DNA from: a virus
Lineage: Duplodnaviria > Caudoviricetes
IMG/VR virus record: IMGVR_UViG_3300031857_000156
Location: 79 to 64,078 of that record
DNA length: 64,000 nucleotides
Direction: 5' to 3' (one strand)
The position numbers and the translations under genes were made by a program. A model generated the notes under the pieces. That model saw only the letters and a program-made list of their open reading frames with translations, was not told the origin of the DNA and did no database searches. Shown piece by piece: positions 31,073 through 51,931 of the stretch (positions are counted from its first letter, which is position 1; each line of letters begins with the position of its first letter).

Positions 31073-31103
31073 ACTTATGCACAATAGCCGCTAGGCGCGC
31101 CCT
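31073..31103 (-). promoter_or_regulatory. Bipartite phage promoter AGGGC-N18-GCATAAGT
   Basis: Exact spacing. Confidence 0.75.
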
Positions 31104-32541
31104 ACTGGGCGTACGGGTTGTACCGCTGCTTGCTTTTGTCATCCGCGTAGTCGTAGTCGCGCACCGGCAGGGGGTCCAGCTGTATCCAGCCCGAGTCGCG
31201 CAGCACACGCAAGGCCTGGGATAAGCTGTCCACGTAGTCATCGTGCCCACCAGACTCCGGGAACGCACACACCTGGCGCAGGAAACGCTTTGCCCAGTCA
31301 GCAAACTCCCCATGCTTTTTCACATCCTCCGGCACGTAGACCTTGCCCTTCGCTATAAGCGGAGCCACGATGTTGATACGCTGCACCTTGTCCGCTCGGC
31401 CAGGGTTGTACGCCCTGACCGGCACGCCGGCACCTTGCAGCTCCTGGATTAGCGAGATACCTGCCGACTTATCCTCCATGAGGATTAGGTCTGCCTTTCT
31501 GCCTTTTGCAAAGGTGTTGTCCGCGCCGTACACGACCTCCTTAAAGTCGTTGATTACCTTCTTGCGCAGCTCGGGATATGACAGGTGCGCATCCCACGCA
31601 TCCAGAAGGATGATGCACGTCCCCTTGTCCTGGTTCTCAAACACGCCCCAAACCTCGCAAGCCGTCGGGTCGTTGTGTGTCTTCTCACTCGTTGCCGGGT
31701 CGTATGAGGCGATCACATACTCCAGTGTCGGCGTCTCCTTTTTCATCGGCCACATCTTAAACCACTTGCGCTTCACAATGCCGGCGTCTTCTGGGTTTAG
31801 GATTTCACCATAGATCTCCTGTTTACCCAGGTCAGTGCCTTCGTAGGTCTCAAGCTGCTTGAAAAACGTCGCCGATAGGTTCTGCCTGTTGTCATAAGAC
31901 GAGGCATTTACCATGTACACGTCGCCGCCGACCTTACCCTCGGCCAGATCGACAATTAACTCCTTTGGCTTGGGTGTGGTGGTTATGATCTGCTGCACCC
32001 GGGCTATGCCTTGGTGCTTTAAGCGCAGCGTAAACTGCACCTGGTCGTACGCATCGTCGATGTACTCAAACGCACAGAGCTCATCGAACCAGGCGCCATG
32101 GAACTGCTTACCTCGATACCGCTCTGGCTCGGATCCTGGTATGCCCTGGATGATAGACCCGTTGATTAACGTGATTTCAAAGAGCGACTTGTTGTAATCC
32201 TTGATCAACGAGTGCGGAATGATGTTAAGTAACCCCGAGTCGCCCTCAAAACACGTCGCCCGAATGTCGTTTGACGTCGGCGCGGTCACTAACCAGCGTG
32301 TGTCGGGGTGTTTCCACGCCCGAATCCCAATCCAATGGCTCGCGGTGTGCGTTTTACCTGATCCCCGGCCGGCAAGCATGAGGAAGGTGTCATATTCGCT
32401 GTCCTCCGGCTCTCTTTGGTGTCCAAGCGCGCTTAATTCCCATCGAACCTGCCACAAAGCCGCGTCCAGCTGCGGTTTTGGCCAGTGTTTGTTGTTTTTT
32501 GCAAAATCCGCCAGGATTTTTTCTTGTTTTTTGCTCAACAT
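31102..32541 (-). CDS. terL: Terminase large subunit
   Basis: Walker A AGRGSGKT, Walker B AWFDE, coupling motif TTTP, nuclease YDPA and HDDYVDS. Confidence 0.95.
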   Translation of the reverse strand: MLSKKQEKILADFAKNNKHWPKPQLDAALWQVRWELSALGHQREPEDSEYDTFLMLAGRGSGKTHTASHWIGIRAWKHPDTRWLVTAPTSNDIRATCFEGDSGLLNIIPHSLIKDYNKSLFEITLINGSIIQGIPGSEPERYRGKQFHGAWFDELCAFEYIDDAYDQVQFTLRLKHQGIARVQQIITTTPKPKELIVDLAEGKVGGDVYMVNASSYDNRQNLSATFFKQLETYEGTDLGKQEIYGEILNPEDAGIVKRKWFKMWPMKKETPTLEYVIASYDPATSEKTHNDPTACEVWGVFENQDKGTCIILLDAWDAHLSYPELRKKVINDFKEVVYGADNTFAKGRKADLILMEDKSAGISLIQELQGAGVPVRAYNPGRADKVQRINIVAPLIAKGKVYVPEDVKKHGEFADWAKRFLRQVCAFPESGGHDDYVDSLSQALRVLRDSGWIQLDPLPVRDYDYADDKSKQRYNPYAQ

Positions 32542-33497
32542 ACTGAGATAAATCCCTCACTTGCCAAGAATGGTTTGTCAACAATGACATGAACGCACTG
32601 TTTCGGATCAATTTTCTTGATTTTTTGTATGTACCTGCGCTTTAGGCGCCCGTTTTTGTCTTCCAGCCTGAATGTCAGTCTATAATTCGGCCCAATCTCA
32701 GGCGTGTACAGCATGGTCTTACACCCCAGCGACTCAACCAGCGCCTGGTAGCGCCTAACTGTCGGGTAGTGGGGCTCGTAAATCGCGTATTTCTTCTCGT
32801 GGTTGTCCCACACCACATAAAAGCACGCGTCTATCAGACCCTCCAGCAGCTCCTCCCGTTGCTCGGGCGAGCTCTCCACGTAACTAAACGGCAGAGTCGT
32901 TGGGATGTCTGCGCCGGCAAACAAAAACGTGTCCTTGATCGATGGCCGGAACTCAAACTTAAAGCGGCCCACGTTAAACTGTTTCACCTTCATAAAAAAC
33001 CCGTGCCCGCGGCACCGCTTTCTCACCCGCTCCAGATCCATCTTGCCTACCATGTTCCTGCCTGACGGCCGCAACGACCCCAGCCAGATACCCATCACAT
33101 AGGGCGGCACCGGCAGATCCTTCCACGTGTACTGCAGCGGCTCGCACACTTGTATGGACCAAGTCTCTGGTTCTTTTTTAACCAGCTCGTCCATTGACAA
33201 GAGCTTGATCTTCGAGCGCAGTGGCTTAGAATACTTCTTGCCGCGGTTCTTAACCCACCGCGACAAGTTGTCTCTATACGTCTTATCTTGCAGCGGGAGC
33301 GCCATGTGAGAGTCGCCCTCTAGCCCCAGCCCATCATCAAACGACACCTGATAGCACGCGCTCGGTATGTACTGCTGCACCGATCTCACCGGCTGGGCGC
33401 AGCCCGCTTGGTCAAACACAAGATCTCCAGGGCGCAAGTCGATTGCCCGCCGCCAGCCACTAAGCGTGGGTATTGGCGTTGTCGCTGCTAGTCCCAT
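32535..33497 (-). CDS. Free-standing intein-like protein (HINT plus LAGLIDADG endonuclease)
   Basis: Block A-like GLAATTPIPTLSGW...DLRPGDLVFD; endonuclease blocks PYVMGIWLG and LLEGLIDA; C-terminal CVHVIVD...FLASEGFI; no exteins. Confidence 0.8.
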   Translation of the reverse strand: MGLAATTPIPTLSGWRRAIDLRPGDLVFDQAGCAQPVRSVQQYIPSACYQVSFDDGLGLEGDSHMALPLQDKTYRDNLSRWVKNRGKKYSKPLRSKIKLLSMDELVKKEPETWSIQVCEPLQYTWKDLPVPPYVMGIWLGSLRPSGRNMVGKMDLERVRKRCRGHGFFMKVKQFNVGRFKFEFRPSIKDTFLFAGADIPTTLPFSYVESSPEQREELLEGLIDACFYVVWDNHEKKYAIYEPHYPTVRRYQALVESLGCKTMLYTPEIGPNYRLTFRLEDKNGRLKRRYIQKIKKIDPKQCVHVIVDKPFLASEGFISVC

Positions 33498-33684
33498 GTC
33501 TCTTTGTCTTTTTCCTAGTCCGGTCGTTTAGTAGGGCGCGCTGTGATGCGCCAGGAGACAGCCAAATCTCCTTGAAGTAACCATCGAGCTTGCGCTTATT
33601 GGTGTACGCAAAGAAGATGTAGCCATCCATCCTAAGATCCCCTCTGCGGAATTGGCTGTTTGTTTGTGGGTTAATTCGCTTCAT
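33460..33684 (-). CDS. Small basic protein
   Basis: 74 aa with GGAGG RBS and a promoter motif at 33705-33715. Confidence 0.65.
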   Translation of the reverse strand: MKRINPQTNSQFRRGDLRMDGYIFFAYTNKRKLDGYFKEIWLSPGASQRALLNDRTRKKTKRHGTSSDNANTHA

Positions 33685-33730
33685 ACCAGTGCCTCCATAT
33701 ACCTACTTATACAAAAAATAAATGGGGACA

Positions 33731-33951
33731 GCTGTCAAGGGTTGCGGGGGTTGCGGGGGTCTAAACCAGGTCCCCCTCTCGGTTTATATTTTTTATTTTC
33801 AAAAAAAAAATAAAAGTGAAATAGACCCCCGCAACCCCCGCAACCCTTGACAGCAAAAAAATTTTACCAACAAAATCAATAACTTACAAAAGTGCGGCAT
33901 AGAGAAAAAAGGGCCTCAGACCCTTGACACGACCCCGGCAACCCTTGACAA
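33731..33951. repeat. Origin-like element, copy 1 (33-bp perfect inverted arms around an AT-rich core, extra iterons, IHF-like site)
   Basis: Arms at 33731-33763 and 33822-33854; AATCAATAACTTA at 33874-33886 fits WATCAAN4TTR. Confidence 0.8.
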
Positions 33952-33971
33952 CTTGTCCGCACAAGCAAAAG

Positions 33972-34002
33972 TTATCCAAAGTTATCCACAGAGTTATCCA
34001 CA
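33972..34002 (+). promoter_or_regulatory. Three tandem DnaA boxes
   Basis: TTATCCAAA at 33972, TTATCCACA at 33982 and 33994. Confidence 0.8.
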
Positions 34003-34155
34003 GGTTGCCTATTTTTAGGGTTGTCTCTATACCTGTCTCTATACGCAAAAAAATATAAAAAAAATTGCAAAAACTGTCGATTTGGGGTGGGGCCACCACC
34101 GCCCTCCCCGACAGGACCCGTTCAGGTGGTCCGTCCCTATTTTCGACCCCCGTTA

Positions 34156-34467
34156 TGTTGCAGCGCACCAATTTGCTGCATTGCAGCACCCCCAGTTAGT
34201 GCTCACTAACTTTGTGCAGTGCAACAAGTAAGTGAGCACTAACTAACCTGTATGCGGCAGTGCAACACCCCCAGCGAGCGCACACTAACTTATATGCTGC
34301 AGTGCACCACCCCCAGTGAGCGCTCACTAACATATTGCAGCGCGGCAATTAGGTTAGTGAGCGCACACTAACATGCAGGCAGGCACGCGTCTTGCCTTAG
34401 CAAGAATCATGCCAAGCTGGCCATGCAAGAATCGTGCCAGATTGCCGGCTAAGTTAGTGAGTGCTCG
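34156..34467. repeat. Array of two alternating operator-like motifs plus three sigma54-type sites
   Basis: Six TGnTGCAnnGCAnCA-like and six GTTAGTGAGCGCTCACTAAC-like motifs; GGCAY-N5-TTGC at 34381(+), 34398(-) and 34424(-). Confidence 0.8.
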
Positions 34468-34532
34468 CGAGCGCGAGCTAGACATCTGGGCATAAAGTAA
34501 CCACAACGACAGCAGGGAGAATCCAGCAGGCA

Positions 34533-34560
34533 AAAACCACCCTGAAAAAACCAGTATATT
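34533..34560 (+). promoter_or_regulatory. Early promoter repeat 1
   Basis: AAAACCACCCTGAAAAAACCAG-TATATT; one of five near-identical 28-mers. Confidence 0.8.
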
Positions 34561-34589
34561 GAGACCATTACATAACAGGAGATCTCACC

Positions 34590-34889
34590 ATGGCGGCATC
34601 CCCAGAATTTAAGCTTTACGACGCAGCAGGCACCTATCAGGCAGCCTGCAAACAGCCTGAGCAGGCAGCAGCCCTTGTTTCTTTTTTAGGCGACGGCGCC
34701 ACCATCCGCTACGGCCACACCAAAAAAGACATCGTGTGGACCGAGGGAGTGGACGGCGCAGCTTCCGACTCTTATGACCAAACAGCAAACAAGGTCGTTG
34801 ACCGGCTGTTTGCGCGCAGCGTTGAGCGCCAACGTCAAAGGGATTTTGACCGATGGGGCGGCGAGCGCCGGCTGTATCCCTTAGATTGA
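34590..34889 (+). CDS. Early hypothetical protein
   Basis: AGGAG RBS, first gene after the promoter. Confidence 0.75.
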   Translation: MAASPEFKLYDAAGTYQAACKQPEQAAALVSFLGDGATIRYGHTKKDIVWTEGVDGAASDSYDQTANKVVDRLFARSVERQRQRDFDRWGGERRLYPLD

Positions 34890-36461: not shown

Positions 36462-36487
36462 AACCACCCTGAAAAAACCAGTATAAT
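36460..36487 (+). promoter_or_regulatory. Early promoter repeat 3
   Basis: 28-mer ending in a perfect TATAAT. Confidence 0.82.
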
Positions 36488-36498
36488 GTAACGATCAC

Positions 36499-36605
36499 GG
36501 AGGCGGGAAAGTGTGGCTTATGACGGTCCGGACAGCGGCGCAGGCATCAGACCCTGCGTTGAAACCCCGGCCGAAGCTGTCGGGATTCACTGCCCGCCCG
36601 CCTCC
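36499..36605 (+). ncRNA. Candidate structured RNA directly after promoter 3
   Basis: Nested stems GGAGGCGGG/CCCGCCTCC, GACAGC/GCTGTC and GGCGCAGG/CCTGCGTT. Confidence 0.6.
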
Positions 36606-40812: not shown

Positions 40813-41400
40813 ATGGAGCATACCGACTTGAAAAGAGATAGGACAGCGCTGTCAGACTACATCCGGGTGCTGTACAGGCACCCGGTGCTGCCGGTGCAGG
40901 AAGAGGAAAGGCTGTCAGGCATGATACAGGCCGGAGACAACGCAGCGCTGGATAAACTGGTGCGGCACAATCTCCGGTTTGTTATTTCCGTGGTCAAGGA
41001 CATGCCGATTTGGCAGAATGGCTCGGTGCCTTTCGAGGACATTGTGGCCATCGGCAACGAGTCCCTGCTCAAGGCAGCCAGGAAGTGGGTGCCTCGTAAT
41101 GGCGCGAGGTTTGCAACGTACGCTAAGCCATTCATTGTCAAGGGTATCAGGAGGACCCTTGATAATGAATGGTCAATGATCCGCGTGCCGGTAAACATCC
41201 TCGAAGAGATACGCCGCATGAAGTATCTCGAGCGGGTTTTATCGCAAGAGCTCAGACGCGAGCCAACGCAGGCCGAGCTTGCCAATCGAATGAAAGTGCA
41301 CGAGAGCCGGATAGTCGAGCTGCAAAACTTACTGACTCTCGAGCCAGTATCGCTTGAGGCATACAATCAGGAGAAATTCCACGAGGAGAGCGAAGAATGA
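40813..41400 (+). CDS. Sigma70-family factor with regions 1.2, 2 and 3 only
   Basis: LSDYIR...EEERL (1.2), HNLRFV...RFATYA (2), IRVP...REPTQAELA...PVSLE (3); stops before region 4. Confidence 0.88.
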   Translation: MEHTDLKRDRTALSDYIRVLYRHPVLPVQEEERLSGMIQAGDNAALDKLVRHNLRFVISVVKDMPIWQNGSVPFEDIVAIGNESLLKAARKWVPRNGARFATYAKPFIVKGIRRTLDNEWSMIRVPVNILEEIRRMKYLERVLSQELRREPTQAELANRMKVHESRIVELQNLLTLEPVSLEAYNQEKFHEESEE

Positions 41401-41752: not shown

Positions 41753-41771
41753 AATGAGAATCATTCGCATT
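41753..41771. promoter_or_regulatory. Fur-box-like site
   Basis: AATGAGAATCATTCGCATT resembles the Fur consensus. Confidence 0.55.
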
Positions 41772-41989
41772 TGTCAGGGGTTGCCGGGGTCGTGTCAGGG
41801 ATATGGACACGAGTTTCCATATACCACGCCCTCTGCAACCCATTGATTTAATTGATGAAAAAATTTGCTGTCAAGGGTTGCGGGGGTAGCGGGGGTCTAT
41901 TTCACTTTTATTTTTTATTTTTTAAAAAGAAAAATAAATTTAAGAGGGAAGTAGGTTTAGACCCCCGCAACCCCCGCAACCCTTGACAG
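41771..41989. repeat. Origin-like element, copy 2 (inverted relative to copy 1)
   Basis: Same palindromic arms at 41867-41899 and 41958-41989, AT-rich core, IHF-like site at 41836-41848; abuts the primase gene. Confidence 0.8.
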
Positions 41990-42029
41990 AGTTAAAGTAA
42001 AACTTTAAGTTTGTATTAGTAGAGGAACC

Positions 42030-50797: not shown

Positions 50798-51931
50798 TTG
50801 ACTGCGCACGCTATTCTTTCGGCATCTGCCTCCAAACGCTGGCTTACGTGCCAGCCCTCGGCCCGACTCGAGGCCAGCCTACCAGAACCCCCTCGCCGAT
50901 CCGGCGACTTCGACTACAGCCAAGAGGGCACCATGGCCCACACCCTGGCTGAGATAAAGCTTCGCCACCACTTTGGACAAATTGGGATTGAAGAATATGA
51001 ACGCGAATACGAAATCATCAAAAACACGCCGTACTACAACGAAGAGTTCGAGCACTACGTCGACGACTACGTCCTCTACGTTCGTAGCCAGATTGGCGAG
51101 GGCGATCAGCCATTCTTTGAGCAGCGTGTGGATTTTTCTGACTTCGTGCCTGACGGATTTGGTACTGCGGATGTCATTATTATTTCCAAGCACTCAATCC
51201 GAGTCATTGACCTCAAGTTCGGAAAAGGCATCTTCGTCGAAGCCAAAGACAACCCGCAGCTCAGGCTCTACGCGCTCGGCGCGTACTGCAAGTTCAAAGA
51301 CGACTACCCGGACCTCAAAGAAGTCCACTACACGATCCACCAGCCAAGGGTAGAGAACATTTCCACCGACGGCACAACCGTCACAAAGCTGCTGGATTGG
51401 GCGCAGTATTTTGTAAAGCCAAAAGCCAAGCGCGCATGGGCGGGCACCGGCGAGTTCATCCCCGGCGAGCACTGCCAGTTTTGCCGCGCCAAAAGTACAT
51501 GCAGGGCCCGCAGCGACTTTGTCAACGAGGTGGCTAAGCTCGAGTTTAGAGAGCCGGCGCTGCTGACTGATGAGGAGCTCGAGCTGGTGTTCTCCCGAGC
51601 AGGCGATCTGAAATCTTGGGTGAGCGATGTTGAAGGCTACTTCACCGAGCGCGCAATCAAAGACAACCTAGTGCCGGCCGGATATAAGTTAGTGAGTACT
51701 CGCACACATCGTAAGATCTCAGATCAGCCGCTTGCAGCCCAGGTTCTTTTGGAGAATAATTTTAAAGAGGACGACATCTGGGAGCCGCGGACTTTGAGAT
51801 CGATTGCACAGCTTGAAAAGCTGGCTAAAAAGGGCCATGTGGCCTCGCTACTGGGTGGGCTGATCGTCAGACCTGAAGGCGGCCAGAAGCTCGTCAAAGA
51901 CCAAAATTTAGCCGCCGAGGACTTTAAATGA
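50798..51931 (+). CDS. DUF2800 Cas4-like PD-(D/E)XK nuclease
   Basis: HAILSAS...W..C, GTMAH, FGTAD, IDLKFG, QLRLYALG and HCQFCRAK..C motifs; TTG start after AGGAG. Confidence 0.88.
   Translation: MTAHAILSASASKRWLTCQPSARLEASLPEPPRRSGDFDYSQEGTMAHTLAEIKLRHHFGQIGIEEYEREYEIIKNTPYYNEEFEHYVDDYVLYVRSQIGEGDQPFFEQRVDFSDFVPDGFGTADVIIISKHSIRVIDLKFGKGIFVEAKDNPQLRLYALGAYCKFKDDYPDLKEVHYTIHQPRVENISTDGTTVTKLLDWAQYFVKPKAKRAWAGTGEFIPGEHCQFCRAKSTCRARSDFVNEVAKLEFREPALLTDEELELVFSRAGDLKSWVSDVEGYFTERAIKDNLVPAGYKLVSTRTHRKISDQPLAAQVLLENNFKEDDIWEPRTLRSIAQLEKLAKKGHVASLLGGLIVRPEGGQKLVKDQNLAAEDFK

Follow-up and report, generated by a model that had tools for sequence, protein, structure and literature searches.

The stretch of viral DNA examined here, hereafter the window, is 64,000 nucleotides (nt) long and comes from an IMG/VR record that is classed as having direct terminal repeats and as 100% complete. 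It belongs to an uncultured freshwater phage; among isolated phages, those most closely related to it infect Caulobacter and form the Riverwalk cluster (portal protein identity, 50%). The genes are arranged in two divergent blocks. Those at 1-33684 run leftward on the minus strand and are late genes, among them the portal and a large terminase in two pieces. Those at 34590-57444 run rightward on the plus strand as early genes and encode GP88-like and DUF932 proteins, a sigma factor, a primase-helicase with PriCT_2, D5_N and DUF5906 domains, an SNF2 helicase, an exonuclease, a gp2.5-type single-stranded DNA-binding protein, ribonucleotide reductase and a family A polymerase. Between the two blocks lies a gene-free gap (Table 1), part of which (33972-34467) is crowded with sites resembling the targets of host DNA-binding proteins. 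Six palindromes in the gap resemble the binding site of SlmA, a nucleoid-occlusion factor of the TetR family that prevents the cell from dividing over DNA. Here we describe a computational analysis of the gap and of its counterparts in other phages, and we present evidence suggesting that the gap may be a cis-acting hub at which host proteins dock.

From left to right the gap holds a phage promoter motif, an inverted repeat, a consensus site for integration host factor (IHF), two ACCCTTGACA repeats, three DnaA boxes, two copies of TGTCTCTATAC, an AT tract, a G/C-run block, composite repeats, a triple of sigma54-like sites and an early promoter of the sigma70 type. An initial annotation had described 33972-34467 as apparently non-coding DNA with three DnaA boxes, six motifs of one type alternating at about 40 bp with six palindromes, and three sigma54-like sites. 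All of these were recovered: the DnaA boxes on the plus strand, the palindromes at successive spacings of 37, 42, 42, 41 and 100 bp, and the sigma54-like sites exactly as described. That annotation did not include the IHF consensus at 33874, the flanking 33-nt perfect inverted repeat or the SlmA match. Every class of motif in 33972-34467 was more frequent there than in 1000 dinucleotide-preserving shuffles.

Table 1. Features of the gene-free gap and associated elements, in window coordinates unless stated otherwise
Feature	Position	Strand	Remarks
Window	bases 79-64078 of the contig		IMG/VR record; single viral contig of 64,078 bp
Gene-free gap	33685-34589		905 bp; between late (minus) and early (plus) genes; contains 33972-34467
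Phage middle/late promoter motif (TTTTTGYATAAGTAG type)	33703-33713	-	directly upstream of first leftward gene (start 33684)
33-nt perfect inverted repeat	33731-33854		GC-rich 9-mers GCGGGGGTT / AACCCCCGC; 58-nt AT-rich spacer
IHF consensus AATCAATAACTTA (WATCAANNNNTTR)	33874-33886	+	shortly before the DnaA boxes
Module B of the border element	33920-33950	+	two ACCCTTGACA repeats
Three direct DnaA boxes	33972-34002	+	TTATCCAAA at 33972; TTATCCACA at 33982 and 33994
Clade-specific repeat TGTCTCTATAC, two copies	34022-34044	+
AT-rich tract	34045-34075		candidate unwinding element; conserved in relatives
G/C-run block (GGGGTGGGGCC...CCCTCCCC)	34076-34150
Six TGC-N3-GCA dyads	34156-34348		cores near 34159, 34177, 34215, 34256, 34298, 34335; interleaved with the palindromes
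Six SlmA-site-like palindromes	34195-34468		12-mers at 34195, 34232, 34274, 34316, 34357, 34457
Sigma54-type -24/-12 element AGGCACGCGTCTTGCC	34381-34396	+	keeps GG-N10-GC; minus strand also readable
Two sigma54-type elements TGGCATGATTCTTGCT, TGGCACGATTCTTGCA	34399-34414, 34424-34440	-	25 bp apart
Sigma70-type early promoter candidate AAAACCACCCTGAAAAAACCAGTATATTG	34546-34566	+	-10 TATATT at 34555-34560; first early gene ATG at 34590
Phage sigma factor	40813-41400		regions 2 and 3; region 4 not recognisable
Second border element	41770-41990		inverted copy of 220 bp; directly before the primase-helicase gene

The layout of the gap is kept in 11 related contigs. In the IMG/VR contig L004 the gap is 91% identical (mean column identity) and the terminase piece 83% identical in protein, and in distant contigs, at 68-77% identity over the matched stretches, the order of the parts is preserved. 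These distant relatives preserve the motifs and no reading frame. Indels of one and two bases (at 34057 and 34152) and a 33-base insertion separate close strains and L004 from the window; the small open reading frames (ORFs) that cross the region are therefore unlikely to be genes, and the stretch is best regarded as non-coding. A blastn comparison of the gap region with 50,697 phage records gave no match, a tRNA scan found none, and a search of Rfam returned only generic microRNA-model hairpin matches at the inverted repeats, far below gathering scores.

The SlmA site has been described as a 12-bp palindrome, GTGAGTACTCAC, whose half-site needs G, T, A and G at positions 1, 2, 4 and 5, a purine at 3 and a pyrimidine at 6 (PMC3020112); a consensus oligonucleotide for the SlmA-binding site (SBS), AAGTAAGTGAGCGCTCACTTACGT, and the site SBS17, which contains GTTAGTGA, have also been reported (PMC4423959). 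When the palindromes were scored by the published base rules over 12 positions, that at 34316 fitted at 12 of 12, those at 34195, 34232, 34357 and 34457 at 11 and that at 34274 at 10, and the remaining 63.7 kb of the window held only two further sites scoring 11. Their 20-bp consensus is GTTAGTGAGCGCTCACTAAC; against the E. coli consensus oligonucleotide, the 20-mers at 34228 and 34353 are identical at 17 of 20 positions and that at 34312 at 16. The motif CACTAAC occurs 8 times in the region and 9 times in the other 63.5 kb (shuffle mean 0.09; none of 1000 shuffles reached 8). By these comparisons the palindromes are matches to the published SlmA-binding site, an identification made here, and the TetR-operator-like symmetry previously ascribed to them is a fair description, as SlmA is of the TetR family. 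A lone SlmA-type site scoring 11 of 12, GTTAGTGAGTACTCGC, lies at 51688-51703 within the exonuclease gene.

The likeness to the E. coli sites, which is one of sequence, extends to the core GTGAG(C/T)(G/A)CTCAC, the outer bases GT(A/T)A and the positions at which deviation is tolerated (PMC3020112, PMC3573117). The arrangement differs: 24-52 sites are reported over the 4.6 Mb of the E. coli genome (PMC3573117), whereas the phage has six in 274 bp, in a 41-42 bp phase and alternating with a second dyad, and encodes no SlmA. No phage protein matched TetR_N at E <= 0.1.

SlmA-type sites were present in all 11 related loci examined, with 2-6 in each, nearly all of them within about 225 bp to the left of the sigma54 triple. 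IMG/VR was scanned completely for two exact GTGAGYRCTCAC sites 18-48 bp apart, with the outer four bases of the 20-bp site left free; this returned 55 stretches with arrays of up to seven sites. Grouped by shared ORFs, these loci comprise the wider clade of the window (16), a group with an Sf6-type small terminase and also a different large terminase (16), and others (23); at least three different gene neighbourhoods are represented. In all three sets the free outer bases read G-T-(T/A)-A and so agree with the 20-bp consensus of E. coli (frequency of G at -4, 0.60-0.81; of A at -1, 0.69-0.87). Because the 20-bp site is kept across phages with different genes, its conservation points to a conserved host protein as the putative reader. 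In phage contigs with other genes the array adjoins a G-run block (GGGGGGTGGGGGG and similar) and then an AT tract, as it does in the window (L580, L582, L576, L578 and L591), which suggests that array, G-run block and AT tract constitute a shared multi-part module, not mere sharing of a site. A full-text literature search, of incomplete coverage, found no publication on phage-borne SlmA arrays or on tandem sigma54 arrays in phages. No SlmA-type array was found in the Caulobacter relative RW, the MW202545 locus or phage YuA. The late/early gap of RW (L002, 2810-2880) contains two GGCAC-N5/6-(G/A)TGCC sites, palindromic and in tandem, which fit GG-N10-GC as well, and neither SlmA-type sites nor an exact DnaA box.

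In the left half of the gap, DnaA boxes with at most one mismatch number three (shuffle mean 0.10; none of 1000 shuffles reached three), and the two TTATCCACA copies are the only exact ones in the window. The IHF consensus is matched three times in the window, where about two matches are expected by chance; two of the three mirror each other, one in each copy of the border element described below (33874+ and 41836-), and the consensus recurs at the equivalent place in four relatives (L317, L432, L300 and L283). At the place of the TGTCTCTATAC repeats, TCTCTATAC is kept in relatives.

Near the right end of the array, the minus-strand sigma54-type element at 34424-34440 is a perfect and, in the window, the only match to YTGGCACG-N4-TTGCW, and that at 34399-34414 has one deviation. 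Four GGCA-N7-TGC sites were counted, compared with a shuffle mean of 0.26, and none of 1000 shuffles reached four. A minus, plus, minus triple occurs in 10 relative loci, about seven of them distinct, at offsets of 0, +23 to +44 and +41 to +62; the window differs in that its plus-strand site lies 18 bp left of the first minus-strand site. Beyond these relatives, the 15-mer TGGCAYGATTCTTGC occurs in tandem in at least 118 metagenome stretches (2-9 copies, periods of 17-60 bp), about seven of which are relatives of this phage, and its free flanks fit the sigma54 consensus: of 233 contexts, 90% have Y preceding the site and 86% have W following it. When the spacer is also left free, tandem TGGCACG-N4-TTGC is found in at least 122 viral stretches, with ATTC (30), CTTC (24) and GTTC (19) as the commonest spacers. 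A full-text search, again of incomplete coverage, found no publication containing the 15-mer. A 596-Gb genome collection yielded 82 tandem stretches compared with about two expected at equal base frequencies; since these span many phyla and many lie on short contigs of metagenome-assembled genomes, they cannot serve as a test of sigma54 dependence. The arrays at loci L249-L486, from well over 100 phage contigs, sometimes occupy both strands and have different neighbouring genes. No neighbouring gene is common to the sigma54-type arrays, the largest family being found at 20 of 235 loci. The sites in the window may be promoters, origin-activating promoters or traps for sigma54 polymerase.

The most plausible account of the gap, which we hold tentatively, is that it is a cis-acting hub on which host proteins dock, comprising a SlmA array, an origin-like part with sites for DnaA and IHF and an AT tract, and the sigma54 sites. 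Host SlmA would bind the six sites of the array, spaced four helical turns apart and alternating with the clade-specific dyad, and the DNA-bound SlmA would break up FtsZ polymers, so that the array would shut down host division while phage genomes are multiplying through the cell. The segment 33874-34150, with its IHF site, DnaA boxes, AT tract and G/C block, appears to be laid out as an origin or a DnaA-titrating locus, and the three -24/-12 elements could hold sigma54 RNA polymerase in closed complexes. We infer the presence of these proteins in the host, their binding here and the consequences of that binding. For 34195-34468, the most likely role would be a SlmA-mediated block of division or the shielding of replicating phage DNA from septation; in E. 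coli, tandem SlmA sites carried on a multicopy plasmid block division (PMC3573117), the effect proposed here for the phage array.

The initial annotation had proposed that the region recruits host factors, and the present results agree with docking of host proteins in so far as the DnaA, IHF and sigma54 consensus sequences are matched exactly and the palindromes match the SlmA site. That the proteins would be those of the host and not of the phage is suggested by the phage encoding neither a TetR-type protein nor a sigma54 activator and by the recurrence of the sites beside different genes. The roles of decoy and of sensor of host state, also raised there, are possible and enter in part into the account given here. 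The set of sites (SlmA, DnaA, IHF and sigma54) suggests a narrowing of the host to SlmA-bearing gamma- or betaproteobacteria. Of 400 sampled genomes of the class, 82 had a SlmA equivalog, a Ferrovum and a Usitatibacter genome being among them; of the 14 control genomes, E. coli was the only one with an equivalog above the cut-off, and Caulobacter had none. No sampled genome contained more than three exact 12-mer sites, so the density of sites in the phage is higher by orders of magnitude.

A division block imposed by a DNA array that borrows host SlmA would differ in principle from the small proteins, such as Kil and T7 gp0.4, by which phages are known to halt division of the host, and would be invisible to gene-based annotation. 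A bolder extension, which we consider doubtful, is a host takeover by DNA only, in which the SlmA-mediated division block would be combined with a datA-like drain or inactivation of DnaA and a dead-end lock on sigma54 polymerase. Were this true, it would represent a general and so far undescribed phage strategy, similar modules being found in more than 100 uncultured phage contigs.

Several observations weigh against the docking of SlmA. The exact 12-mer was found in 27 of 82 SlmA-positive and 57 of 319 other genomes, only about a two-fold difference (a hand count of genomes with at least one site, the 319 including the unpublished G145 and the unscored G252), and a reversed control pattern matches in 17 of the 82 SlmA-positive genomes. 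A phage regulator of unrecognised fold could read the same palindrome. The interleaved dyad is not explained by SlmA. The side on which a DnaA box lies varies among relatives, which is odd for a fixed origin geometry: three left-side boxes occur only in the window and L004, and in eight relatives the box is single, keeps its flanks (AGTTATCCACAGG) and lies right of the sigma54 triple, its offset being +106 to +135 in seven loci and +65 in L231, where the first minus site is unmatched. Finally, SlmA-type arrays in two phage groups lie within a few hundred bp of terminase genes, so that a packaging site fits that nearness as well.

The alternative that survives best, possible but unlikely, is that the gap is a replication origin in which the DnaA boxes, IHF site and AT tract form the opening region and the composite repeats of about 40 bp are iterons of a phage initiator. 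The iteron origins of pSC101, P1 (oriR) and RK2 (oriV), and likewise E. coli datA, combine a DnaA-box cluster, an IHF site, an AT tract and repeats, and the composition of the gap is like theirs, with a DnaA-box cluster adjoining an AT tract as expected of an origin-type sequence. The initiator would most likely be the encoded P4-alpha/D5-like primase-helicase, and the tandem sigma54 elements would give activation or an RNA primer, much as promoters at T7 and T4 origins supply transcriptional activation or a primer. Exact DnaA boxes are enriched near the tandem sigma54-type arrays of other phage contigs, with 37 compared with 1.8 expected in 116 loci and 10 compared with 1.8 in 119 loci (control, 3 compared with 1.7), and several of these arrays (for example L320, L266, L280 and L277) adjoin clusters of 3-6 exact DnaA boxes and IHF consensus sites; the association is relevant to the initiation of replication or transcription in uncultured phages. 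The gap departs from iteron origins and datA in that no initiator gene adjoins it, the first early gene differing among relatives, in the shifting of the DnaA box, and in that its repeats are host-type palindromes found across phages with different genes and not lineage-specific direct repeats. The minimum of cumulative GC skew, at 36-38 kb, lies near the region; it coincides with the strand switch and thus is not independent evidence of an origin. The left half may well be or include an origin, and a SlmA array in the right half would be consistent with this.

The gap could also be a packaging region of the pac type or resembling lambda cosB, where binding of the small terminase subunit is aided by IHF. 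The repeats would then be bound by the small subunit with the help of IHF, and packaging would start nearby. We judge this quite unlikely. The terminase genes are 500-750 bp downstream of the region, which contains an IHF site, the arrays of the second phage group lie about 165 bp before the Sf6-type small terminase and about 550 bp before the large one, and the neighbours of sigma54-type arrays include large (15 and 7 loci) and small (7 loci) terminase families. However, different terminases are not expected to read the same 20-bp palindrome, and no small terminase is recognisable among the genes of this phage. Terminase genes, moreover, often open the late operon beside the main control gap, so that proximity says little.

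A sigma54 enhancer-promoter unit, in which palindromes and dyads would be activator sites for a host enhancer-binding protein, is very unlikely. The plus-strand element would fire toward the early genes and the minus-strand ones leftward, tying early transcription to host state. The perfect -24/-12 match and the conservation of the triple agree with such a unit, and the distance of 20-260 bp from the repeats down to the plus-strand element is typical of enhancers. However, early genes have their own repeated sigma70-type promoter and late genes one for the phage sigma factor, so that neither operon needs the repeats or the sigma54-like sites as its main promoter. What follows the minus-strand elements is 700 bp of non-coding DNA with a hairpin of -85 kcal/mol at its end. 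No Sigma54_activat domain or enhancer-binding protein is encoded by the phage, in which the combination of activator and downstream transcribed gene expected of a sigma54 promoter was not found; a host activator is possible. Arrays in other contigs with periods of 17-29 bp are too dense for independent promoters, and the 148 arrays outside called genes had a downstream gene that was co-directional in 56 cases, convergent in 35 and absent from the locus in 57, as judged from crude ORF calls within which a further 125 arrays lie.

Phage YuA is a precedent for the use of host sigma54 by a phage: its GenBank entry (AM749441) annotates -24/-12 promoters, and a preprint reports that it depends on sigma54 and has one sigma54-like promoter detected by cappable-seq (bioRxiv 10.1101/2023.10.13.562163). 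Both phages have -24/-12 elements suited to the host factor, but those of YuA are single promoters before structural genes, whereas here three overlapping elements occupy both strands of a non-coding hub and the two on the minus strand have no gene within 700 bp downstream.

The proposal of the initial annotation that the region lies near the first-injected genome end, binding abundant host proteins that protect the DNA or pull it in, is highly improbable: the T5 injection-stop region and the T7 early promoters provide models, and the mirrored 220-bp elements with strong hairpins that bracket the early module would suit stepwise entry, but the contig ends are assembly ends inside a repeat and sigma54 polymerase, unable to transcribe without an activator, could not pull DNA in. 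Both contig ends fall within a perfect 42-base tandem repeat coding for a Gly/Ala-rich protein (the first and last 120 bases of the genome; bases 1-120 at the left), and because both lie inside a tandem repeat of a gene they are not physical termini; the copy number of the repeat is probably unresolved in the assembly.

The six TGC-N3-GCA dyads correspond to the first motif type of the initial annotation. TGNTGCANNGCA has six matches on both strands, at four places (34156, 34174/34177, 34215 and 34295/34298; shuffle mean 0.03), and TGC-N3-GCA with one deviation is found at six places; neither count was reached by any of 1000 shuffles. In 36 unique contexts from the clade, the dyad starts either 17-19 nt before (19 occurrences) or 20-24 nt after (14) the start of a SlmA-type site. 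It is absent from the other phage groups with SlmA-type arrays, and its reader is probably specific to the clade or its host. A reading of the dyads as NtrC sites was rejected, their half-sites being everted relative to the NtrC consensus.

A resemblance to the PhaR/PhbF site had also been proposed. The consensus on which it drew is correctly quoted, TG[N]TGC[N]3GCAA or CTGC[N]3GCAG being reported for PhbF/PhaR (PMC3206438), and the phage dyads share with those operators the core TGC-N3-GCA. CTGC-N3-GCAG is fitted by one dyad (34175-34187) and TGNTGC-N3-GCAA by one. The region has a single exact PhbF pattern, and with at most one mismatch there are 11 matches on both strands compared with 0.38 in shuffles. 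Unlike those operators, the phage match is low in information, with a six-base core, and the motif is confined to this phage clade; the proposed link is weak, with PhaR as one candidate reader. A polyhydroxyalkanoate-storing proteobacterial host therefore does not follow from it; the sites suggest instead a gamma- or betaproteobacterium.

At the left of the gap, the arms of the inverted repeat are 100% complementary, with a fold of -85.2 kcal/mol (z = -11.3), and a single base change relative to L004 is compensated in both arms; arrays of its 9-mers are also found in relatives. This repeat is the left border of the early module. The second border element shares its inverted repeat, IHF site and module B with 33731-33953 at 84% identity in reverse orientation, and the mirrored 220-bp elements bracket a 7.8-kb module of early genes. 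They may be bidirectional terminators or insulators, an origin for the superfamily 3 (SF3)-type primase-helicase, or an entry stop. The sequence TTGACA within the border repeats was rejected as a -35 box, as it is not conserved in relatives and its spacings misfit.

The TTTTTGYATAAGTAG-type motif occurs with at most one mismatch at eight places in the window, six of them in gaps before genes on the correct strand (2661-, 8905-, 33703-, 42012+, 49150+ and 52377+). Its conserved form is TTTTTG(T/C)ATAAGTAG, directly before middle and late genes, and it is probably a promoter read by the phage's own sigma factor. The early promoter is repeated at 36473, where it has a perfect TATAAT and precedes the gene at 36513, and two further copies were found in the early region of L004.

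DNA of this phage is present in 20 sequencing runs from 16 studies, mostly of freshwater or lakes, with no RNA run among those listed. The single raw-read run gave two reads and no pile-up of molecule ends; it showed only strain variants that occur together, among them the 21-bp inversion of the L004 type. An exact inversion of 21 bp (34332-34352) distinguishes the window from L004; it spans one dyad (TGC-N6-GCA) between two oppositely oriented palindromes, and the inverted form co-occurs in one lake sample. The large terminase, at 31102-33684, is split into pieces. An ORF at 32535-33497 matches only intein-bearing terminase profiles and has the appearance of an intein or homing insert, and a conserved 74-amino-acid ORF (33460-33684) overlaps its start. 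The terminase of Caulobacter phage RW is likewise split, with a methyltransferase gene between the pieces.

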